From contig SUUL01000002.1 in NCBI GenBank assembly GCA_015062545.1, forward strand, positions 19,175-83,174: 64,000 nt of DNA. Reading direction: 5' to 3'. Source of the stretch: Alphaproteobacteria bacterium (lineage in GTDB: Bacteria > Pseudomonadota > Alphaproteobacteria > Rs-D84). The position numbers were made by a program, and so were the translations under genes. A model generated the notes under the pieces. That model worked only from the letters and a program-made list of their open reading frames with translations. It had not been told where the DNA came from and made no database searches. Of this stretch, positions 698-60,118 are shown one piece after another. Position 1 is the stretch's first letter. The number at the start of each line of letters is the position of its first letter.

Positions 698-2779
698 CTA
701 GTCTTCCAAGAAACTGCGCAATTTACGTGCGCGCGTTGGATGCTTTAACTTGTTCAACGCTTTTTGTTCAATCTGACGGATACGTTCGCGGGTTACACCA
801 ATGTATTCGCCAACCTCTTCCAAGGTGCTGGTTTTATTGGTGGACATACCGAAACGTTGACGCAGAACGGTTTCTTCCTTGGGATCCAATTCAGACAAAA
901 TCTGTGTTACAATCTTGCGCAGATTCTTTTGCGCGGCAGATGTAAATGGATTCTTGGCTGTTTCGTCCGCAATAATTTCAATACGAGAACTGTCGTCTTC
1001 GGTGCCAACAGGTGCTTCTAATGAAATTGGTTTCAGATTAACCTTCATTGCCTTGTGAATCTTGTCAACCGGCAGATAGATAATCTTGGACAATTCTTCG
1101 GCAGTTGGCTGACGACCGTATTTATGCATAAACTGACGTGATGCACGTTGAATCTTGTGTATATTATCAATCATATGCACAGGGATACGAATTGTGCGTG
1201 CCTGATCCGCAATACTGCGTGAAATGCCCTGCTGAATCCAGTTTGTCGCGTACGTAGAGAATTTGTTACCTAAACGATAATCAAACTTGTCCACAGCCTT
1301 CATCAAACCGATATTGCCGTCCTGAACCAAGTCTGAAAAATCCAATCCCAGACCGCGATTACTGGATTTCTTGGCGAATTTGATTACCAGACGCAAGTTG
1401 GCTTCTATCATTTCGCGCTTGGCACGTGCCGCTTCGGTTTGACCACGGCGCACCAATTCAACAACCTTTTTATATTCAGATGTAGGCTGGCCCGTTTCTG
1501 TTGCAATCGCCGTAATGTCATCTTGGATTTTCAAGATGTCATCGCCATGTTTCTTGGCGAAGTTTGACCATGCTGTATTCTTGTGCTTGGACAGTTTCTT
1601 GACCCAATTACGGTTCAATTCGTTGCCCGCATATTCCGCCAAGAAATCTTCACGTTTAATCTTGTTTGCCAATGCCAAACGTAACAATTTCCCTTCCAGC
1701 CCCATTAACAACTGGTCACGTTTAGTCAACTGTTCCAAAATTTCCGCAATACGATCATCGTTCAAGCGAATCTTGCTGACATGTTCGAACAATTCCAGAC
1801 GCATTTTGGTATATTTCTTTTCCAATGTCGCATCTGGTGTATCAGATGTCAACAAATTGTCCAAACGTTTTGCCTGCAATTTCTGCATGCTGTTAAAGAT
1901 ACGTTTAATCTTGGCAAATAAATCCAAAACCATTGGCATCAAAGATTCTTCCATTACAGGAATTGGAACACCAGATGTGCCGCGTGGTGTATCTTCTTTC
2001 TTGATACCATCTTCGTCATCATCTTCTTCGTCTTCGTCATCTTCTTCAACGGATGCATCTGCCAAATCGTCCAAATCATCATCATCCAATTCGTCAACAT
2101 GTTCCACTCCCTTGGATTTCAGGGCTTCGGACAAGGCGGCCAATGATTTTTGTTCGGAATCACTGGAATACATAACTTCTAAATTAACGATATAGCGCAA
2201 ACGAATATCTTCGTTCAGCAACTGTTGATACCAATCCAGCATTGCCTGAATAGTCATCGGGCTTTCGCACAGACCATACACCATCAAACGGGATGCGGCC
2301 TCGATACGTTGCGCGATGGCAACTTCGCCCGCAGCGGTCAGCAACTGAACCGTACCAATTTGTTTCAGGTATGATTGAACAGAATCTTGAACACCCAACA
2401 CCAAAGAGCCTGTCTGGCTGCGTTCCAGCTGTTTGGCATAGTGTTCATAGTCGTCATCGTTGACATCAACCTGTTCGGCATCCGCATTCAGCAAGTTACG
2501 TGTTTTATCGCGCGGTTCGTCATCTTCGTCCGTCCCGTAATAGCGATTCAAATCCTGGGGATAATTATCCGATTCCAAGATTTCCAACCCCAGGTCTTGC
2601 TGAAAGAAATCCAAAACTTCATCATGTTCTTCGGCAGGAACTTCGTCCGCTTCGGTGGCATCATCAAAATCCATACGTGACAGATAGCCAACCTCTACCG
2701 CAGATTGCGCCAATTTTTGCAGATTTTCAGGCAAAGAATCTATTAACAATTTTGTTGCCTGATCCAATTTTTTTACCAT
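698..2779 (-). CDS. rpoD: RNA polymerase primary sigma factor (sigma-70)
   Basis: 693 aa. Region 2 [35 protein letters not shown], region 4 [19 protein letters not shown], acidic spacer. Confidence 0.95.
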
Positions 2780-2827
2780 TAATCACCCTTTCGCAGTTTT
2801 TAATGTTTTCCAAATGGTTTATTAAGA

Positions 2828-3373
2828 TTATTTCTTTTTAGTTGCCTTGTTGGCCTGCTTTTGCGCCTTGGCAACCGCATCATGGATTGCAGATTCAGAC
2901 ACCAATCCCAATACGATTGGGCTTTGGATTTGAATAATTGAATATGACTTGTGTGTTTTATTGCGTACAGATGCAACCGTTGGGTTTGTACTGCGCATCA
3001 AGCGTGCAATCTGACCATCCGACAATTCTGGGTAATTCTTGACAATCCACAAGATACCGCCCAGACGATTTTGACGATGCAATTTTGGCGTATAACCAAC
3101 ACCCTTTTTGTTTTGCTTCTGTTGTGCATCAACGATTTCCTTGCGCAGGGTCAAACGCGCAGAAGAATCTGCTTCGCAATTTTCAATATCTTCACGTGTC
3201 AACTGACCGCTTAAAATTGGGTTCAATGGTTGAATTTTGTATGTTTCCGCATCCGCGATATTTTTAACTTCAAGTTCATGCAAGCCGCAGAATTCTGCGA
3301 TTTGTTCAAATGTCAACGCTGTGTTTTCAATTAACCACAAGGCTGTTGATTTAGGCATATATGGATAGTTCAT
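2828..3373 (-). CDS. DUF1013 family protein (TrcR-like, alphaproteobacterial)
   Basis: MPKSTALWLIENTALTFEQIAEFCGLHELEVKNIADAE matches the conserved DUF1013 N-terminus. Start trimmed to MNYPYMPK. Confidence 0.8.
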   Translation of the reverse strand: MNYPYMPKSTALWLIENTALTFEQIAEFCGLHELEVKNIADAETYKIQPLNPILSGQLTREDIENCEADSSARLTLRKEIVDAQQKQNKKGVGYTPKLHRQNRLGGILWIVKNYPELSDGQIARLMRSTNPTVASVRNKTHKSYSIIQIQSPIVLGLVSESAIHDAVAKAQKQANKATKKK

Positions 3374-18852: not shown

Positions 18853-19278
18853 TTATTCTTTGTTCTGCTTGTTCAATGCGTTTACCATTTTCATTATCAA
18901 GTCGCGCTGATTATCCGCAGGCAATTTCCAATATGCCATTAACAAACGCAAAGATTCATTTTTGGCCAATGGATCAAATGGTGTTTGGTCGCCAACATGC
19001 ACCTTGGGCCAATGACCATTACGGGGTTCGCGTTCCATGTGTCCAGGCAGCCCAGCAAAGAAAAAAGATACAGGTGTTTGCAAGGCAACACTAAGTTCAA
19101 ACAGGCGCGATGCTGCAATACGATTGCCCGCCGTTTCATACTTTTGAATCTGTTGAAATGTTACACCACACAACTTGGCCAAATCTTTCTGGGACAGCCC
19201 CATCATAGAGCGGCGCAGCTGCATGCGCTGACCAATATGTTCATCAATAGATGTTGGCGCAAAACGCTTTTTCGTCAT
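18853..19278 (-). CDS. XRE-family helix-turn-helix transcriptional regulator
   Basis: IGQRMQLRRSMMGLSQKDLAKLCGVTFQQIQKYETAGNRIAASRL. Confidence 0.85.
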   Translation of the reverse strand: MTKKRFAPTSIDEHIGQRMQLRRSMMGLSQKDLAKLCGVTFQQIQKYETAGNRIAASRLFELSVALQTPVSFFFAGLPGHMEREPRNGHWPKVHVGDQTPFDPLAKNESLRLLMAYWKLPADNQRDLIMKMVNALNKQNKE

Positions 19279-51507: not shown

Positions 51508-53277
51508 CTACCCCTGTTTCTTGAATTGCATATCGTATAAAGATTTATACGCCCCATTTTCAATCGAAATCAGTTCATCATGCGTACCACTTTCCACAAT
51601 TTCACCGTGGTTGACAACAACAATCTTGGCCGCGTTGCGAATTGTGGATAATCTGTGCGCAATTACAAAAACCGTCTTGTCCTGCATCAGATTTTCAATA
51701 GCGCGTTGAACAACGGCTTCGGATTTGTTATCAAGCGCGGATGTTGCCTCGTCCAGAATCAAGATAGGGGAATCTTTCAAGAAAGCACGCGCAATCGCAA
51801 TACGCTGTTTCTGACCACCAGACAGCAAGATACCACGTTCACCAATCTGGGTATCAACCCCGTCTTTTAGTCCCGCAATAAAGTCCGTCAGGCACGCCAT
51901 ATCTATTGCTGTCTGCAGTTGTTCTGGGGTTGCATTTTGATTGCCCAGCATAATATTTTCACGAATTGTGCCTGCAAACAAGAAATTATCCTGGAAAACG
52001 ACCGCAATATTTTCGCGCAACGAATGCAATGTAAAATCACGAATGTCCGTACCATCAACATATATACCACCGCTGGTCACGTCATAAAAACGCGGCAGAA
52101 GGCTTACCAATGTGGTCTTGCCACCCCCGGAATTACCGACCAGCGCAATCGTTTGTCCCTGCTGTACCGTCAAGTTAATATTTTGCAACACTGGACGACC
52201 TTTGATATATTCAAACGACAGGTTGCGAAACTCTATGGTCTTGTGTTCACGTGGCATTGGGCGCGCATCAGGTCTGTCCATAATTGCAGGACAACTGTCC
52301 AAAATAGCCGCAACACGTTCAATCGCCATAAATGACATTAACACAGAATTATAATTGGAACCGATACTTTTCATCGGGGTGTATAACATTATCAATGCAG
52401 TCAAGAAAGATACAAAACCACCACTGGTAATCGTGCCACGTAAAATTAAATATGACCCGTACCATATCGCAACACCAATACCGACAGACAAAATAACGTG
52501 CATCACAGGTGTCAGCCAACGCGTGCGTTGCATCATTTTAATACGCAATTTGAAAACGTTGTCCAATACTGTGTTGAACTTGTTCTTTTGATAATCTGTT
52601 AAATTATAAGATGTAATTGTGCGATTGCCTGCATAAGATTCATTGTACACCGTTATCAAGGTCGAGTCTGCCATAATAGACTTGCTCATCACAGATTGGA
52701 TACGTTTCTTTAATGACATCATGGGCAAAAATGCACCGATTAAGATTGCCGTACAGACCAATGCCAACTGCCAAGAATTATAAAACAACACAAATATCAA
52801 AGATATTGCCGTAAAGAATTTTTGAACAAAATTCTTGAGGTTAGTCAACAAACCCGCGCATGCCATGTCCGCATTGTTATTAAACATAAATATAACATCC
52901 CCAGAATTTTTCTTGTTAAAGAATTCAGTTTCAAAACACAGCATCTTCTTGTACAGGTCAAGTTTCAACAGATTTGTTATTTTCGTACCAACCCATGTGT
53001 TCAGGTAATTCGCACCATACGTCAATCCGCCTTGAACCGTTGTAAAAAGAACAATAACGATTGGAATATACCATGCCGCCTGCAAGGACTTGTCAATCAT
53101 GACATAGTCCATATATGGCTTTAATGACATTGCGATAACACCGTCCAACATACCGATTGGGGCCGCCATCAGAACAGATAATAATGCACGAAACCAGTAC
53201 GGTTTAACATACGGCCACATACGGCGATAGTTTTGAATAAATGAATTATTTAAGATAATTTCTGCTTTCTTGGCCAT
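51508..53277 (-). CDS. ABC exporter, fused permease/ATPase (MsbA-like)
   Basis: 589 aa. Six TM spans, GNSGGGKTT Walker A, LSGGQKQR signature, ILILDEATSALD. Confidence 0.9.
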   Translation of the reverse strand: MAKKAEIILNNSFIQNYRRMWPYVKPYWFRALLSVLMAAPIGMLDGVIAMSLKPYMDYVMIDKSLQAAWYIPIVIVLFTTVQGGLTYGANYLNTWVGTKITNLLKLDLYKKMLCFETEFFNKKNSGDVIFMFNNNADMACAGLLTNLKNFVQKFFTAISLIFVLFYNSWQLALVCTAILIGAFLPMMSLKKRIQSVMSKSIMADSTLITVYNESYAGNRTITSYNLTDYQKNKFNTVLDNVFKLRIKMMQRTRWLTPVMHVILSVGIGVAIWYGSYLILRGTITSGGFVSFLTALIMLYTPMKSIGSNYNSVLMSFMAIERVAAILDSCPAIMDRPDARPMPREHKTIEFRNLSFEYIKGRPVLQNINLTVQQGQTIALVGNSGGGKTTLVSLLPRFYDVTSGGIYVDGTDIRDFTLHSLRENIAVVFQDNFLFAGTIRENIMLGNQNATPEQLQTAIDMACLTDFIAGLKDGVDTQIGERGILLSGGQKQRIAIARAFLKDSPILILDEATSALDNKSEAVVQRAIENLMQDKTVFVIAHRLSTIRNAAKIVVVNHGEIVESGTHDELISIENGAYKSLYDMQFKKQG

Positions 53278-53930
53278 TATTTTGCCTGCTTGGGTTCTGA
53301 TTTAGTATTATATGGATTTTCAACATGTCCGCCCCACATTTTCTGTTGAATCCATAAACTGATTTTACGTTTTGTCTGCTGACCGACCAACTTGTCTAAA
53401 TATATTTGGCGTACTGCCGCGCCCAACGTACGAACGTCAACATCGCTGATATATGGCTTGGCAACCTCAAATCTGATATTTATATGATTGTCTTGCATTA
53501 TCTTGGCGGGAATCATTACCGTGTATTCACTGCGCCGCCCCATACACCAATCTGCAATCTGAACATCATTGGCATAGACGGTTATTTTTTGACAGCCATC
53601 TTCGGGGTCATATACACCGGATGCCTCTATCCCAAAGCGGAAGTCAGCCCCCGCCCCGTCTGGAATAAACAATTTCAATTCCGCGGTTTTCGCAGTAATA
53701 CATCTGTGCTTGGGTTCTTGGCCGCCCCATCTGCCATCAGCGGGCGCAAAGTTCAGACTGTTGCCCGTCTGCGAGAAATCGATAACTTCACCAGGCGTAT
53801 ATACCACGTATCCTTCTGGCACAGATGACGGATCATATACACTTGGATTTGGGCGCAACACCACAAATGCCACAGTGACAACCAGTATTATTACAGATAT
53901 AAATAAAATGATTTTTGTTTTTTTATGCAT
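53277..53930 (-). CDS. Hypothetical N-terminally anchored protein, translationally coupled to the ABC exporter
   Basis: 217 aa. One TM span, then a beta-rich domain. Its stop overlaps the exporter start codon. Confidence 0.6.
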   Translation of the reverse strand: MHKKTKIILFISVIILVVTVAFVVLRPNPSVYDPSSVPEGYVVYTPGEVIDFSQTGNSLNFAPADGRWGGQEPKHRCITAKTAELKLFIPDGAGADFRFGIEASGVYDPEDGCQKITVYANDVQIADWCMGRRSEYTVMIPAKIMQDNHINIRFEVAKPYISDVDVRTLGAAVRQIYLDKLVGQQTKRKISLWIQQKMWGGHVENPYNTKSEPKQAK

Positions 53931-54078
53931 CTTGTCCCCGTTAAAATCTGAAAATTTTATACAAAATCAAATATGACAATAAAACCAATAGGAATTTTAT
54001 CGCATTTTTATTTATACTCCGTTTTTTTTAACTACGACTACACCCTAGCAATTATATTGATGACAGTCAACATTTATA

Positions 54079-54107
54079 TTGATTTTTTTATGTTTTTATG
54101 GTATAAT
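54079..54107 (+). promoter_or_regulatory. Strong sigma-70 promoter with extended -10
   Basis: TTGATT-17 nt (ending TGG)-TATAAT. Confidence 0.6.
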
Positions 54108-54147
54108 TTAGTGTGAATTGGCAGGCATTTCGTCTGTCTTTTTTATT

Positions 54148-54179
54148 GCCCCGATATGTTCGGGGCTTTCTTTCGTTTT
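54148..54179 (+). promoter_or_regulatory. Terminator-like hairpin inside the leader of the tail-fibre-like gene
   Basis: GCCCCGA-TATGT-TCGGGGC followed by TTTCTTTCGTTTT, ending 24 nt before the start codon. Confidence 0.45.
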
Positions 54180-54202
54180 ATATAAAACCAAAAGGAAAAA
54201 AC

Positions 54203-55015
54203 ATGAATAAAATTACTTATTTTGGCGATGGGCAAAGTATGGATTTTGCGTTTTCATTTAATTTCTTTCAAACGTCAGATATTTATGTTAAAATAAACGG
54301 AACACCGCAAACGTCCGGATACACATTGACGTGTATTAACAGCACAACACCTGCAGATATACCATACGTTGGGGGAACTATTTCTTTTAACACGCCACCT
54401 AAATCAACAGATATAATAACAATATATCGTAAAATAGAATTAACGCGTGTCGTGGATTATCAACAAACAGAAAAAATAAACCCAGAAACACTTAATCAAG
54501 ATTTTAATTATCTGATGGAGGTTATCAAAGATTGCGACTGTGCAATCAATGATTTTACAGAAAAATATGCTGATTTATGCAAATTGCCACAGGTATCACA
54601 AATAAATGAAAAACTGAACAAAGTGCAATCAAGCTTGGATAATTGCGCACAAAAAACAGATATAAACGCACTGCAAGACGCGACTGGTTTTACCAACAAA
54701 GGCACAACGGCCATTGCAAATATGGCAATGCCATCTAATCAATATACGGAATTGACACTGGGTGCAGACGGCACAACATATACCGCACCAGCAGATGGAT
54801 ATTTTTATATCGCAAAAATATCCACCGCAGCCGGTCAACGTATCGGATTATTAGAACCTTCGGGTGGGCCAGGCACGATGATTTATTCAACAGATACAGG
54901 TCAAACACTGATGGTGTTTTTGCCTGCACGAAAAAATCAAACTGTCCAACTAAGATATACGTTGGGTGGCACAACAAATGTCTTCAAGTTTATATACGCC
55001 AATGGTGCAAAATAA
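54203..55015 (+). CDS. Phage T7-type tail-fibre-like protein (N-terminal adaptor domain, coiled coil, beta-rich tip)
   Basis: Start trimmed to MNKITYFGDGQSMDFAFSFNFF after RBS AAAGGAAAAA. ...ITIYRKIELTRVVDYQQTEKINPETLNQDFNYLMEVIKD follows the tail-fibre N-domain pattern. Confidence 0.6.
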   Translation: MNKITYFGDGQSMDFAFSFNFFQTSDIYVKINGTPQTSGYTLTCINSTTPADIPYVGGTISFNTPPKSTDIITIYRKIELTRVVDYQQTEKINPETLNQDFNYLMEVIKDCDCAINDFTEKYADLCKLPQVSQINEKLNKVQSSLDNCAQKTDINALQDATGFTNKGTTAIANMAMPSNQYTELTLGADGTTYTAPADGYFYIAKISTAAGQRIGLLEPSGGPGTMIYSTDTGQTLMVFLPARKNQTVQLRYTLGGTTNVFKFIYANGAK

Positions 55016-55033
55016 CAAAAAAAGGAAATTAAA

Positions 55034-55219
55034 ATGTTTTTAGGAATACAAGATGGACTTATTGCTGTGGTCGCACAAACACGCGCAGAAATAGAAAACA
55101 TGCCCTGTATGATTTTTACAGAAATCATAGAAACTAACCAACCTGTCGAAATGGTAAATTGTAAATACTATGTAGGAACAAATAATATTCAAGATGCAAA
55201 AATGGGGCTGACTGAATAA
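55034..55219 (+). CDS. Small hypothetical protein downstream of the tail-fibre-like gene
   Basis: 61 aa, RBS AAAAGGAAA, 18 nt after the preceding stop. Confidence 0.45.
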   Translation: MFLGIQDGLIAVVAQTRAEIENMPCMIFTEIIETNQPVEMVNCKYYVGTNNIQDAKMGLTE

Positions 55220-55246
55220 AAATCCCCCATTTTTGGGGGATTTTTA
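55218..55246. terminator. Bidirectional terminator
   Basis: AAAATCCCCC-ATTTTT-GGGGGATTTT. Confidence 0.7.
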
Positions 55247-55247
55247 T

Positions 55248-56201
55248 TCACCGTTTGGAATTAAACCAGTCAACGAATGTCGCAATACCTGTTTGGAAAT
55301 TCGTATTTGGGTTGTATCCAAGTAATTTATGAGCCTTGGACCAATCGCACACCGTTTTATCAACGTCACCAGGCTGCATCGGCATTTGTTCAATAATTGC
55401 ATCAGTGCCGATCGTCTGTTCAATGGTGTGAATCATATCACGTAATGTAATTGGTTCGCCGCCCCCCAGATTTATTATCTCAAATCCTGTTTTATCGTAA
55501 TCAATCGCTGCACAAATTCCAGACAATATATCCGATATGAACGTATAATCACGCTTGGTAGAGCCATCGCCATACATATGAATCGCCTGATGATTTTTTA
55601 TCATCTTGGCAAATTTATGTATCGCTAAATCCGGTCTTTGGCGCGGCCCATATACTGTAAAGAAACGTAATGCAACAACTGATATGCCGTACAAGTGATG
55701 CCACGTGTATAATAATTGCTCGCATGCAGATTTTGTTGCCGCATATGGCGATATAGGTTCTGTGACTTTCAAATCTTCACTAAAAATATCTTCGGGACAA
55801 TTACCATACACTGACGAAGATGATGCAAACACAATCTTGTTAATATTCTTTGCACGCATACATTCCAGGATATTTACAGTTCCCATAATGTTTGTCTTGA
55901 CATATTCTATGGGCTTTTCCAAAGAAGGACGAACGCCCGCACGTGCCGCCAAATGTACAACAACATCGATGTTATTTTCATTAAAGATGTGCTGTAAAGA
56001 TTCTAAATCTTCAATATCTGTACGATACAGTTTATAGCGTGAATTGCCCAAATTGTGCGCAACATTGTTTTCTTTTATTGAAACATCGTAATAATCATTA
56101 AAATTATCTACAACGATAACCGTATGATTTTCTGATAATAATTTATCCGCCAATGACGATCCGATAAATCCAGCCCCACCAGTAATTAAAATATTCATCA
56201 T
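55248..56201 (-). CDS. NAD-dependent nucleotide-sugar epimerase (UDP-glucuronate 4-epimerase-like)
   Basis: ILITGGAGFIGSSL; SSSSVYG; YAATK (Y-x3-K). Confidence 0.85.
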   Translation of the reverse strand: MMNILITGGAGFIGSSLADKLLSENHTVIVVDNFNDYYDVSIKENNVAHNLGNSRYKLYRTDIEDLESLQHIFNENNIDVVVHLAARAGVRPSLEKPIEYVKTNIMGTVNILECMRAKNINKIVFASSSSVYGNCPEDIFSEDLKVTEPISPYAATKSACEQLLYTWHHLYGISVVALRFFTVYGPRQRPDLAIHKFAKMIKNHQAIHMYGDGSTKRDYTFISDILSGICAAIDYDKTGFEIINLGGGEPITLRDMIHTIEQTIGTDAIIEQMPMQPGDVDKTVCDWSKAHKLLGYNPNTNFQTGIATFVDWFNSKR

Positions 56202-56209
56202 GTCCCCCT

Positions 56210-59164
56210 TTACCTACAAAACTTCCAGTTTTCAAAATCTAATCTTGTCATGTATTCGTCATCCAAATAATCCAGATGACGTAAGATATAATTCACATCG
56301 TATTCGTAGTTGTCTTTCAGATACGAAATTAAACGATACGTATTTGGAGAGTATTTCATCGTATGACCACATACCGTAAAATTTTTAACCTTTAATAGTG
56401 GGCAACGCTGATTTAACAAGTCAATCGGATCGCTGGATGCCAAGAATTCGGGTTTGATATAAGTATCGTATGTAAAACCATATCGCGATAATAGACCCGT
56501 TAATCTGTATTCGTATTTCTTGACAATGTCACTACGAACCTTTTCAACTTTGACGTTTTTCAGAAAATCTGTGAACGCGTATGACGTAAATACATCACGT
56601 GACAAGACGACAAAGTATGACTGAATATGTGTCCCTTCCCTGACGCGATTATTTTGGGTACAACCCCAGAAATCAACATTGCGTCTTTCCATTTCATTGA
56701 ACATATTTTCCAATGGAAATATCGGCCCATAACAAGAATCATTCGCCAATATGATGCCGTCATATTTATACAAGTCTTCGTATGAAAAACGTCCAAATAA
56801 TTTAGACCATGAACCAAAATCATACATTTTGTGCCGCTCGGCACCGGCGAATTTCACAAAATCAGATATTTTTGCCAATTCGCCTCGCTTCATTTGACAA
56901 TCTGCGAAATAATGCACTTCAGCGATTTTTGATAAGTGTCGAATATAATTTATCGCATAATCTTCCATTTTGCCTTTGGCACTGTATCCCGCGAATAAAC
57001 ATAAATAACGTTTTTTATTATTTGGTTTTTTTATGACAGAATTATGTCTGAACACCCTGAAATCTTTATACGATTGTCGGGTATTTATGATAAAGTGCGA
57101 CTTGATATCAGATATGCGATGCTTCCAAAATAGATACATTAAACTTAACTGATCACGGGCGCAGAATTTTGTCAACATATACCACCAATCATTCATTATT
57201 CTGCGCAGAACCATGTTTTTATGATTTCTGTAGAGAATGTTGTTTTCACCAAGTCCCCACCCCTCGGGGAAACCTTCTTTGCGTAACTTGCTCATTAATA
57301 CGTTAACGGTTGCTGGGTTTACCAGTTTCAAGTTTTTTATCTCCGCTGCTTCGGAATAAATGCATTTTCTGCCAAAATGTTGCGGTAATAAAAATGCTTT
57401 TTGCTTGGCCGCAACAGCATCAAAAATATAAGAAGACAATACGTTTATGTTAGAATCTATATAGATACTTTCATTATATTCTTTCAGACAAATATGTGGA
57501 AACACCTTGTGCCATCTGTTGTTCAAAGATGGATTTAACTTATTATAAACCAAGGGTCTGATTTCCCAAATACCAACACGTTGTTTGGCAATTAAGTCTG
57601 TATTGTCTGTAAAACATATATAATCGTATGTGTTGTCAATATAATAGTGAGAAATCAAATCATCATAGTTGCCAGTTATACATGTATATACCGCCCTTTT
57701 AGATTTCCTGGTATCACGAATTTGCCAATATTCTTTAATCTTTTTATTACTTGGTTTGTATAAGTTTTCCTGAACAGTATAGCCACTGCTGCTGCCAGAC
57801 AATAAAAAGTGCAACAAGGGACACATATTAACATGTTTGTATAAAGATAAATATTCATCATTATTAAAGAATTTGGATGGATTATGCCCCAACTGCCAGC
57901 CAACTTGGATATAAAAATCCAGCAAATCATCTGACTTTACGTTATACTTCTTGTAATACTTAGAATCCCACATGCCAGAATCTAACAGCAACTGTTTCTG
58001 AGAGAGATACGTTTTGGTATCTATCTTTTTTACCCTTGATTCATACCATGAAATTATGCATCCATACAAATCCTTGTTATGTTTTCTTAGGAATTCTAGC
58101 AAATGGTTTGGGCAGTCTGCTGCAGTGCTAGACCAGCCACGATTTAACGCCTTGATTTTAACCAGTGGAAAAGAAAACTTCTTAATCAAATATAACGGAT
58201 AAACTGTCTTATTCAGACGCGGTAACGGAATATCCGCAGAATTTACATACGTTTTATACACAAACCCAGCTTCAACAAAATACTTGGTCGTTCCCAATTC
58301 ATAACAACGTATAACCTCTTCAACAGATTTTTGCTTCTTGACGCTGGCAAAAAAATCATAAAAACATTTGTTTTTTAATACATTAGACTTAAAACACATG
58401 AAATATGATTGAACATGCGGAGATAAATCTTGATTGTCCAACACACCCCAGAAATCGCACTTCTTTGTGCGCATTATATTAAACATATCCACAAAAGAAC
58501 CACCAACGGGCCCAAAACAACTGTCGTTACACAATATTAAGCTGGAAATTTTGTCCAAAGCCTGTTTTCTGGCCAAATATAAAACACCACGTTTGTATGA
58601 CCCAAAATCATATTCGCCATGACGTTTACACACAGCATATGTACAATACGGCTTGATTTTATCCATTTCAGATGCAAAAACGGGATTGTCCGCAATAAAA
58701 ATAATGTTGTCTGTGACCGCCTTTAATTTTTCTAAATAGTATACAACATAATCAGGAATAATGCCGTCTGTAAAAAACGATGCAAAAATTGCCACTTTGC
58801 CGTTTTTCTTGATTTTGTTGCCAGATACAAAAGTCTTATTGGTTGCACCTTTTGGAAAAACATTGGTACAACTGTCAACGCACGCAATAAGTTTTAATGG
58901 GCGATTTTCTTTTTTTCCGAATTTTTCATAATGATATAATGGGCATATATCGGCCGCTTTAACGTCTGGATTGCACCTTAGGTATTCATCACCGTTAAAT
59001 GTGGCACACGGATTGCGCGATTCACGCCACCCATATTGTAAATAGTGTTGAACTGGATCCATCTTGGCGGCAGCAACATCGGGGTATGTTTTGAGATACC
59101 ATCTTTTGTTAAAGAATTTTGACTTCTTTATAGTTTTATATTCTTTTGTTGCCCGATTATGCAT
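56210..59164 (-). CDS. Triple-domain polysaccharide biosynthesis protein: RgpF-like, DUF616-like glycosyltransferase, RgpF-like
   Basis: 984 aa. RgpF motifs occur twice (HGEYDFGSYK/NDSCFGP/DFWG/HVQSYF and HKMYDFGSWS/NDSCYGP/DFWG/HIQSYF). The central region carries YTCITGNYDDL...RDQLSLMY. Confidence 0.8.
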   Translation of the reverse strand: MHNRATKEYKTIKKSKFFNKRWYLKTYPDVAAAKMDPVQHYLQYGWRESRNPCATFNGDEYLRCNPDVKAADICPLYHYEKFGKKENRPLKLIACVDSCTNVFPKGATNKTFVSGNKIKKNGKVAIFASFFTDGIIPDYVVYYLEKLKAVTDNIIFIADNPVFASEMDKIKPYCTYAVCKRHGEYDFGSYKRGVLYLARKQALDKISSLILCNDSCFGPVGGSFVDMFNIMRTKKCDFWGVLDNQDLSPHVQSYFMCFKSNVLKNKCFYDFFASVKKQKSVEEVIRCYELGTTKYFVEAGFVYKTYVNSADIPLPRLNKTVYPLYLIKKFSFPLVKIKALNRGWSSTAADCPNHLLEFLRKHNKDLYGCIISWYESRVKKIDTKTYLSQKQLLLDSGMWDSKYYKKYNVKSDDLLDFYIQVGWQLGHNPSKFFNNDEYLSLYKHVNMCPLLHFLLSGSSSGYTVQENLYKPSNKKIKEYWQIRDTRKSKRAVYTCITGNYDDLISHYYIDNTYDYICFTDNTDLIAKQRVGIWEIRPLVYNKLNPSLNNRWHKVFPHICLKEYNESIYIDSNINVLSSYIFDAVAAKQKAFLLPQHFGRKCIYSEAAEIKNLKLVNPATVNVLMSKLRKEGFPEGWGLGENNILYRNHKNMVLRRIMNDWWYMLTKFCARDQLSLMYLFWKHRISDIKSHFIINTRQSYKDFRVFRHNSVIKKPNNKKRYLCLFAGYSAKGKMEDYAINYIRHLSKIAEVHYFADCQMKRGELAKISDFVKFAGAERHKMYDFGSWSKLFGRFSYEDLYKYDGIILANDSCYGPIFPLENMFNEMERRNVDFWGCTQNNRVREGTHIQSYFVVLSRDVFTSYAFTDFLKNVKVEKVRSDIVKKYEYRLTGLLSRYGFTYDTYIKPEFLASSDPIDLLNQRCPLLKVKNFTVCGHTMKYSPNTYRLISYLKDNYEYDVNYILRHLDYLDDEYMTRLDFENWKFCR

Positions 59165-59185: not shown

Positions 59186-60118
59186 TTAATTTTGCCTAAA
59201 AACTTTTCCGACCGGTATAAAATCGAACAGGTAAGCCTTGTAACAAACCCATTTGAAATTTTCTTGCTGTTGACGATAAACAGTCCATATTGGAATTGAA
59301 AATAGCGTCAAACGAAAATGTTTCTTGTACTGCGGTATATTGCTTTTGGTAAAGGGCAGCCCCACACGAACCGCATGACGATATATCATATCAACCATCA
59401 AATCCGTTGTGTACGGATACAAATATTGCAGACCATACAGATTCTGTAATGCCGTCTTTTTAACAAATGGTAAACCAGCCTTGAGCATTTCTATGGGCTT
59501 GTCATATATTGCATGGCACACTTCGCCATTTTGACCGCTGATGTATGTGGACATGCGATAACCATGCTGCATAATAAGTTGAGACAAGCCCACTTCGTAT
59601 TTCAGAACAACTAATTGTTTTGTGCCTTGTGTGCGCACAGAATTCATAAAATTATATAAAAAATCAGCATTTGCCACCTGGCGACTTAAACCAACAAACC
59701 AAGACTGTACCTGAACCGGGGTTGGCATATTAATAAAATCAATCATCCCAGTCAGGTCAACACCACGTGATTCCAAATCATTTAATATGCCAGATATATC
59801 AGACAACGGGCCATAAACGCTGTCGTTTACCAGATAAACCCAATCATATTTTGATAAAATTTTGTTCTTGTGCGCCCAATTATATGCACGCTTGTACGAA
59901 CCAAAATCATATTCACCGTGGGGGGCCGCAGATGAATGTAACAGATTTGATACGGTCTTGAGTTTATTTTGTTCTGATGCGCTTAGGTCATTGTCCATAA
60001 CCAGAACAATATCACCCAGCGCAGATAAAGAATTCAAATAATGCAGTAGTGTATTATCAACAATACCAAATTTGTCGTATGCCGCAAATAGAAATAAACG
60101 TTTTTTTGACTTTGCCAT
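59186..60118 (-). CDS. Rhamnan-synthesis-protein-F (RgpF) family protein
   Basis: 310 aa. HGEYDFGSYK, NDSVYGP, QVQSWF. Confidence 0.8.
   Translation of the reverse strand: MAKSKKRLFLFAAYDKFGIVDNTLLHYLNSLSALGDIVLVMDNDLSASEQNKLKTVSNLLHSSAAPHGEYDFGSYKRAYNWAHKNKILSKYDWVYLVNDSVYGPLSDISGILNDLESRGVDLTGMIDFINMPTPVQVQSWFVGLSRQVANADFLYNFMNSVRTQGTKQLVVLKYEVGLSQLIMQHGYRMSTYISGQNGEVCHAIYDKPIEMLKAGLPFVKKTALQNLYGLQYLYPYTTDLMVDMIYRHAVRVGLPFTKSNIPQYKKHFRLTLFSIPIWTVYRQQQENFKWVCYKAYLFDFIPVGKVFRQN

Follow-up and report, generated by a model that had tools for sequence, protein, structure and literature searches.

The subject of this analysis is a gene in a 64,000-nucleotide (nt) stretch of DNA (the window: positions 19,175 to 83,174, forward strand, of contig SUUL01000002.1 in the alphaproteobacterial assembly GCA_015062545.1, which comprises 938,825 bp in 15 contigs and is 97% complete). 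The gene lies inside a polysaccharide locus, and its product begins like the tail fibre of phage T7. This fibre open reading frame (ORF; P0001) occupies 54203..55015 on the plus strand and encodes 270 amino acids (aa), its translation being exactly the one quoted in the original prediction, which had been made from the sequence without database searches. The start is the ATG at 54203 behind an AAGGA motif, and homologues begin at the same residue (MNKITY/MQKVSY); a longer frame opening with GTG at 54113 adds only leader to the ORF. A second ORF of 61 aa (P0002, 55034..55219, plus strand) follows in the same transcription unit, 18 nt downstream as first reported, and a bidirectional terminator (55223..55239) is common to this unit and to the convergent epimerase gene.

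The fibre falls into three parts, all on the plus strand: a podovirus tail-anchor domain of the T7 gp17 N-terminal type (residues 1–110, 54203..54532), recognised by PHROG and fold matches; a helical shaft, presumably a coiled coil (residues 94–175, 54482..54727), seen in an AlphaFold2 (AF2) model; and a beta-sandwich tip, putatively like the TNF/C1q jelly roll (residues 177–270 and the stop codon, 54731..55015), placed by the same model and by VIA. The AF2 monomer model was built on 39 homologues, has a mean predicted local distance difference test (pLDDT) score of 86.9, and shows a beta domain at residues 3–76, long helices across 94–175 (94–126, 129–148, 151–158 and 165–175) and a beta sandwich at 177–266. 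Among homologues the shaft differs in length, and nearly all of the 23 invariant columns of their alignment lie within the anchor part. The shaft also contains four cysteines (C111, C113, C126 and C148, within residues 110–148, 54530–54650) in a region where most homologues are charged (KDRKDELD...), possibly providing disulfide or metal stabilisation of a putative trimer.

That the N-terminus is of the T7 tail-fibre type, as had been predicted, is borne out by several searches. PHROG tail and tail-fibre families match residues ~4–110 with E-values down to 7e-12, always over the first ~110 positions of much longer profiles. Foldseek aligns the N-domain, with a probability of 1.00, to fibre chains of solved podovirus tails, namely those of LME-1 (9efk_AE), Carin-1 (8ck1_B), PhiM1, Kp7 and P-SCSP1u. 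A VIA search against all representatives likewise sets residues 1–87 on chains solved in place on podovirus tails, with Z-scores of 9.3 for 9efk_AE, 8.3 for 8ck1_B, 7.0 for 7y22_e and 6.6 for the N-terminus of T7 gp17 (7boz_a; root-mean-square deviation 2.0 over 67 residues), and with the fibre chains of Kp7, P-SCSP1u and cyanophage A4 as further structural matches. At the sequence level, tblastn against phage records matches the N-domain to fibre and tailspike genes of podoviruses of 35–45 kb, and a PDB sequence search of the fibre returned the N-terminus of the Dpo31 tailspike at E 0.04 and nothing else. No match to PF18454 (Mtd_N) was found in the fibre protein or anywhere in the genome, that domain being present in the most distant database matches only. 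Profile and structure searches for tail-fibre similarity had been proposed with the original prediction; PHROG, Foldseek and VIA agree with it, and the Pfam family for the T7 tail fibre, PF03906, does not match.

The particle cluster and its fibre slot

It had also been proposed to search the genome for a particle cluster that lacks a fibre gene, and one was found on the same contig. This T7-like cluster, identified with PHROGs, lies about 90 kb downstream of the fibre gene (84–96 kb beyond it) and contains genes for a portal, gp12-like and gp11-like tail proteins, a major head protein, a scaffold-like protein and a cell-wall hydrolase, together with a split terminase whose nuclease and ATPase genes lie around dnaB and a helix-turn-helix (HTH) gene. 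A PHROG scan of the cluster region showed no replication or integrase genes beside it. The fibre is the sole gene with an anchor domain in the genome, a protein search and a family-profile search each giving this one match.

The place where the cluster would be expected to encode its fibre is empty. In seven of seven relatives (G025, G057, G139, G097, G090, G098 and G016) an anchor-domain gene of ~190 aa lies between p115 and the terminase ATPase gene (TerL-ATPase), which is the place of gene 17 in the T7 gene order. The interval between these two genes measures 546–561 nt in the seven in-cluster genomes and 24–28 nt in the genome studied here. The slot is also empty in 20 of 20 other genomes whose fibre genes are all dispersed, that is, encoded away from the cluster; in these genomes, chosen by state, the gap is 5–205 nt and holds no anchor-domain gene. 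The product of p115 (115 aa) might have been a remnant of a fibre, but this idea was rejected because the protein, helical and basic, gives no match and occurs in both classes of genome.

The two fibre states were then counted in a family sample of 151 genomes, 128 of which gave a fibre-family match and 133 a gp12 match. Among the matches listed, the 132 genomes with a full gp12 comprise 74 with an in-cluster fibre only, 43 with a dispersed fibre only, seven with both and eight with none, the gp12 being very divergent in six of these eight. Only two of the 19 genomes without a full gp12 have a fibre match, and both of these genomes are incomplete. In-cluster frames are 148–213 aa long and dispersed frames mostly 262–767 aa. 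A gp12 tree of 26 genomes, selected according to state, requires at least three changes of fibre state; in it the genome studied here (G000) groups with one dispersed-fibre genome (G106) and one in-cluster genome (G057), not with the all-dispersed clade that holds the fibres of the same locus. A complex prediction for the gp12-like and gp11-like proteins with fibre residues 1–125 scored 0.00, with controls not run, and speaks neither for nor against binding.

The leader of the fibre gene

Transcription of the fibre gene appears to start from a promoter of the form TTGATT-17-TATAAT with an upstream TG (extended -10; 54079..54107, plus strand). Two terminator-like hairpins follow on the same strand: the first (GGCAGGC-ATTTC-GTCTGTC), with a T-run, spans 54120..54147 (stem-loop 54120..54138) and has an equivalent in orthologous leaders; the second (GCCCCGA-TATGT-TCGGGGC), with a T-rich tail, spans 54148..54176 (stem-loop 54148..54166). 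Next come a palindrome, GTTTTATATAAAAC (54175–54188), and the ribosome-binding site (RBS) AAGGA, together covering 54175..54196. The promoter named in the original prediction is present; as a single site it is at chance level (seven promoter-like sites against 7.8 +/- 3.5 in shuffled sequences), and we regard it as real because it is conserved across 30+ orthologous leaders; in an alignment of 35 leaders, TTG in the -35 element and T.TG.TA...T in the -10 element are invariant. The terminator-like hairpin that had been described is also there, although as one of two; terminator-like sites in the region number six against 1.3 +/- 1.3 in shuffles.

A leader of this design, with TTGAT/CTTTT, then TTT(T/G)TG(A/G)TATAAT, a short stretch often containing CAT, hairpins and an RBS, precedes each of the dispersed fibre genes examined. 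Most of these leaders have two hairpins, each with a T-run (three of those listed show one), and a palindrome, TTTTGTTATAACAAAA, is usual between the hairpins and the RBS. In-cluster fibre genes have no such leader and lie directly behind p115. A crude count with RNAfold gives at least two terminator-like hairpins for 28 of the 41 leaders and for 10 of 574 regions preceding long ORFs of this genome; the count misses some hairpins because T-runs are absorbed into stems, and the fibre leader itself scores one where the terminator scan finds two. Hairpins were counted per sequence since a MAFFT alignment of the leaders registered them too poorly for a covariation count. As to the palindrome, the position filled by GTTTTATATAAAAC in this genome is filled by TTTTGTTATAACAAAA in most other dispersed-fibre leaders (L005–L042), and cluster leaders have no palindrome; the element could serve as an operator bound by a dimeric DNA-binding protein, or could act in the RNA by masking the RBS.

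An nhmmer model built from 31 dispersed-fibre leaders, with this genome excluded, matches the fibre leader of this genome (E 2.7e-12) and a second site, C11:129245-129144 (E 2.4e-13). It also matches the 5' end of the cluster in seven of seven loci of relatives (E 6e-13 to 9e-6), and the cluster leader of this genome is built alike, from TTGACT-17-TAACAT and a TG followed by two hairpins. The second leader site, which is outside the window, heads an operon on the minus strand (C11:125616-129245, or L054:5619-9258) that comprises genes for a protein of 378 aa bearing a phage lysozyme domain at its C-terminus and for a Tlde1/YkuD-like protein, three small ORFs resembling membrane proteins or lipoproteins and, after a weaker leader match, a gene for a GH108 enzyme. 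This operon is probably the lysis module of the particle regulon. A match of the model at C6:2470 was rejected as a merely similar promoter before a lipoprotein gene. Additional matches in relatives, at L049:18275-18429 and L050:4449-4593 (both plus strand, E about 3e-6), precede genes that are neither fibre genes nor cluster starts and may mark further members of the regulon.

A cluster on the same contig, an empty fibre slot and a common leader favour an accessory fibre of a gene-transfer agent (GTA)-like particle, which was one of the options put forward in the original prediction (a domesticated receptor-binding protein of a particle encoded elsewhere). We therefore think it probable, if short of certain, that the fibre gene supplies the receptor-binding tail fibre for a short-tailed, T7-like particle that packages DNA, has been domesticated and has its cluster ~90 kb downstream. 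As judged from genes, the fibre is most likely the relocated, swappable receptor-binding fibre of this GTA-like particle, and the promoter/double-terminator leader is best read as wiring it to the particle's other operons.

In such a scheme, three fibre chains would form a trimer and dock through their N-domains at the junction of the gp11-like adaptor and the gp12-like nozzle, as T7 gp17 docks at the adaptor/nozzle junction. The putative TNF/C1q-like head would bind a glycan on the surface of the recipient cell, probably the product of the surrounding locus, so that ligand and receptor would be inherited and swapped together. A near-consensus promoter directly before two terminators is the layout of lambdoid late operons; here, a strong constitutive promoter would be held off by the two leader terminators until an antiterminator read through them, turning on cluster, fibre and lysis genes together.

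The glycan locus and the exchange of tips

The genes flanking the fibre pair are all on the opposite strand, in agreement with the original description: ugd, an ABC exporter (51508..53277), a 217-aa protein (53277..53930, overlapping the start of the exporter gene by one base), an NAD epimerase (55248..56201), a 984-aa RgpF/TOD1-like glycosyltransferase (56210..59164) and a 310-aa RgpF-family protein (59186..60118), all of these minus-strand and, save for the 217-aa protein, assigned with Pfam. No phage structural or integrase families were found in 39 further window ORFs with PHROGs or in 16 neighbouring ORFs with Pfam, and the statement that the window is free of capsid, portal, terminase, tail and integrase genes therefore stands.

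Five relatives (G083, G126, G094, G038 and G050) carry full-length fibre homologues in the same ABC-exporter/RgpF locus, at other positions and on the same strand as the glycan genes. Some flanking genes are conserved between this genome and the five: the exporter is 76–79% identical (86–90% among the five themselves), the 310-aa RgpF-family protein 62–65% and the 217-aa protein 37–44%. Others are variable, the NAD epimerase having no counterpart in the five related loci and the large glycosyltransferase only partial matches of 33–36%. Two metagenome contigs match the window from 59186 rightwards and are unlike it to the left. The 217-aa protein has a hydrophobic N-terminus and no Pfam or PHROG family, adjoins the exporter in all five related loci and is probably a partner, so far unrecognised, in glycan export.

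Glycan genes are the usual neighbours of dispersed fibres. Among the 15 dispersed fibres for which wide context was available, 12 are in glycan loci, and these loci show seven or more compositions, including, besides the ABC-exporter/RgpF type, neighbours such as GT2/GT8 (G131), GT2/TupA (G137), GT2 with pyruvyl-transferase and GT11 (G065), TagF-like (G119), RmlD/WavE (G112) and Glf/GT2/GT1 (G106). This strengthens the earlier suggestion that the glycan neighbourhood is meaningful; a functional link would be putative. Within the shared locus, the fibres of the six genomes fall into three identity groups (G083 with G126 at 62%; G094, G038 and G050 at 55–61%; and the fibre studied here alone at 35–43%), which are also the groups of the adjacent large glycosyltransferase, whereas the ABC exporter is 76–90% identical in all pairs and does not sort in this way.

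Exchange may extend to the whole locus. The nearest relatives by gp12 (G057, G106, G062, G133 and G055) have RgpF homologues only 39–46% identical, as compared with 62–65% in the more distant clade, and a search with the 217-aa protein of this genome did not find that gene in them. These similarities hint that the whole glycan locus, with its fibre, may have moved or been exchanged between lineages.

Exchange of the tip is seen at closer range. P0017 and P0019 are identical to the fibre at 58 of 60 positions over residues 1–60, ~60% identical over 61–120 and unrelated beyond about residue 150; close strains, in other words, keep the anchor and replace the rest, with a breakpoint at about residue 60–70. 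A metagenome contig of another run is about 95% identical to the window over 52550–54408 and then continues with sequence unlike it. The metagenome evidence used here is limited to contigs that continue unlike the window, and stretches without contig cover were not used. One contig from run X7 joins 55024 to 57329 through 34 other letters and so lacks the 61-aa ORF, the epimerase gene and a portion of the large glycosyltransferase gene. It could represent a variant locus or a chimera; a joint found at 80% likeness may derive from another organism.

The tip itself is modelled with a pLDDT above 90. VIA places residues 178–268 among TNF/C1q-type jelly rolls and carbohydrate-binding modules at Z 6–7, with a warning that a Z below 8 may reflect a common arrangement; structural matches include C1q, APRIL, BclA, the Bdellovibrio Bd2133 fibre tip and the PLTL lectin (the last three at Z 6.3–6.8). 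At such Z-scores the TNF/C1q likeness is suggestive. In the tblastn search the tip, separately from the N-domain, matched the tail fibre of Desulfovibrio phage ProddE and, at 45% (E 1e-14), Dulem virus 31.

The 61-aa ORF downstream, which had been thought a possible assembly chaperone, has four database homologues with 73–77% identity, two of which, the records suggest, share contigs with fibre homologues (P0004 and P0009). In the genus sample, one of 110 other genomes (G104) encodes a homologue (47%), directly downstream of an ORF with the same tip, which implies that the 61-aa ORF travels with the tip and not with the anchor. Tip-specific assembly factors of phage fibres travel with tips, and from its distribution this ORF is possibly a conserved partner of this tip type, an assembly factor whose product would help to fold or assemble it. 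It has no Pfam or PHROG family at useful E-values and no BLASTP likeness to the PF16778 chaperone beside the fibre of G014, and its Atlas structure matches to tail-fibre assembly clusters fall below threshold.

The G104 tip ORF (~150 aa; L077 = G104:C3:41393-44563, features 1483-2219 minus and 2378-3004 plus) has an Mtd_N-like start, read by eye, in front of the same tip domain, and is flanked by a serine recombinase gene and a GT8 glycosyltransferase gene. As G104 also retains the in-cluster gene of ~190 aa, tips may be carried by anchors of different kinds.

A tentative extension of the GTA-like reading, which we put forward as a possibility and no higher, is that the fibre moved into the host glycan locus so that tip and receptor form a co-inherited, co-swapped cassette, a kin or 'mating-type' label, with the portable leader plugging such cassettes into an antitermination regulon. 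Slightly less favoured, and on balance unlikely, is the view that the fibre serves the particle while its place in the glycan locus is incidental, the locus being a hot spot and the tip binding some other receptor. The differing positions and strands of the fibre within the same locus across genomes would fit an incidental place, as would a promoter and terminators of its own, which make the cassette portable, and so would the exceptions among the 15 dispersed fibres, two between bamB and der and one in a context not clearly glycan or other. Pointing the other way are the 12 fibres in glycan loci of such varied composition, the matching groups of fibre and neighbouring glycosyltransferase, and a tip fold apparently of a kind often used as a lectin.

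Function of the fibre and comparison with known systems

Several points weigh against reading the gene as the fibre of a GTA-like particle encoded with its receptor. The genome is a metagenome-assembled genome of an uncultured organism, and the reading rests on gene content. A Pfam scan of the fibre (hmmscan, E<=10) gave five weak, unrelated families, none of them significant and PF03906 (Phage_T7_tail) not among them; Endotoxin_N was a chance-level match (0.0036, below its cut-off). Since the genomes are related to one another, their counts lack independence; eight fibre-family matches of the 151-genome search are additional to those tallied, and selection by state applies to the 20 genomes of the slot check. 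At the 5' end of this genome's own cluster the leader model gives only a weak match (E 0.029). In the search for an antiterminator, eight proteins of the cluster region, including P0119 and the small HTH proteins, were scanned with Pfam, and P0119 was also compared with PDB sequences; HTH domains were all that these searches returned, and no homologue of GafZ, Q or BrrG was found among the cluster-region proteins examined. The co-variation of fibre and glycosyltransferase comes from six genomes in three groups. Finally, glycan loci are general hot spots of insertion and exchange, so the location of the fibre may be incidental, and one of the two fibres between bamB and der is accompanied by a PF16778 chaperone.

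Readings that do away with gene transfer or with the particle fare worse. It is improbable that cluster and fibre are a killing or lysis device, PBSX-like or bacteriocin-like: the same leader does head the operon that includes genes for a lysozyme-domain protein, for a Tlde1/YkuD-like protein and for a GH108 enzyme, and the DNA-transfer role is read here from genes, but a pure tailocin could do without a portal, a capsid and the two halves of a terminase, all of which the cluster retains, and the combination of peptidoglycan enzymes and small membrane proteins would equally suit a lysis cassette that releases particles. The tailocin option of the original prediction is for this reason unlikely.

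More improbable still is a cell-surface adhesin or lectin fibre of the BclA or Bd2133 type that works independently of the particle. The likeness of the tip to the C-terminal domain of BclA, the Bd2133 fibre tip and the PLTL lectin would suit such a protein, as would its glycan neighbours; the Z-values in question, however, are in the range that VIA calls common, the N-domain is of the type that docks fibres on podovirus tails, the same domain fills the fibre slot of the cluster in relatives, and no signal peptide or surface anchor is evident in the fibre sequence. We found no support for this option, which had also been raised at the outset.

We give marginally less credence again to a scar or moron of a past podovirus, kept by chance or for a host function apart from the cluster. 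Both the N-domain and the tip have relatives in real phages, and the GC content of the fibre gene is slightly below that of its flanks (0.33–0.38). Yet the window has no other phage genes, the frame is intact with full-length homologues in many genomes, the distribution is complementary to that of the in-cluster gene, and the leader is common to cluster and lysis operon. The edge of an ordinary prophage was rejected, as the window is without phage genes and the family occurs in 128 of 151 genomes at varied chromosomal sites.

If the GTA-like reading is right, a gut-bacterial lineage with genomes below 1 Mb appears to keep a T7-like particle with an exchangeable targeting protein, which many species encode inside the locus that builds their cell-surface polysaccharide. 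Should the tip bind that polysaccharide, receptor and ligand would be linked, the recipient specificity of gene transfer would be heritable and swappable, and a comparison of tip types with glycan types would offer a way to predict how genes flow between uncultured strains in the gut. The conserved leader, in turn, provides a sequence tag for finding members of the regulon and a testable model of antitermination. GTAs are known mostly as siphovirus-like particles of free-living Alphaproteobacteria, and to our knowledge their choice of recipient is understood only for RcGTA, the GTA of Rhodobacter capsulatus. In the literature searched, none of the titles listed for Enterousia concerns phages or particles, and no paper on a podovirus-type GTA was found; the Enterousia genome paper (PMC12306168) contains no occurrence of phage, prophage, capsid or gene transfer.

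Compared with T7 gp17 and with podovirus fibres and tailspikes, the fibre has a matching N-terminal beta domain and the same order of anchor, helical shaft and distal tip, and in relatives of this genome the fibre gene, as in T7, comes after gp12 and before the terminase. It differs from gp17 in giving no match to PF03906, in its putatively TNF/C1q-like tip and in lying outside any phage genome; gp17 is 553 aa long, and the fibre here is half that size.

RcGTA reportedly has a multilocus layout, with attachment genes outside the main cluster, and there, as apparently here, the host has retained a particle of phage origin and encodes its attachment proteins at a distance from the structural genes. 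RcGTA is siphovirus-like, whereas the particle here, recognised by its genes, is T7-like (podovirus-type); the fibre gene here lies inside glycan loci, alternates with an in-cluster gene across species and carries a portable promoter/double-terminator leader. No sequence relation to RcGTA proteins was seen, and no search for one was made. The RcGTA tail fibre and head spike are reported to bind the capsular polysaccharide of the recipient (PMC10218006). A promoter followed by terminators that need bypass is a further likeness, to the systems of CcGTA with GafYZ and BaGTA with BrrG; antitermination coordinates separate GTA loci in Caulobacter (PMC11150451) and Bartonella (bioRxiv 10.1101/2024.11.20.624540). 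Those systems are modelled on lambdoid Q proteins, while the present one is recognised by a DNA design repeated at the fibre, cluster and lysozyme operons. Dispersed GTA attachment loci are of a kind already known, and the locus described here would be a variant in a T7-like setting.

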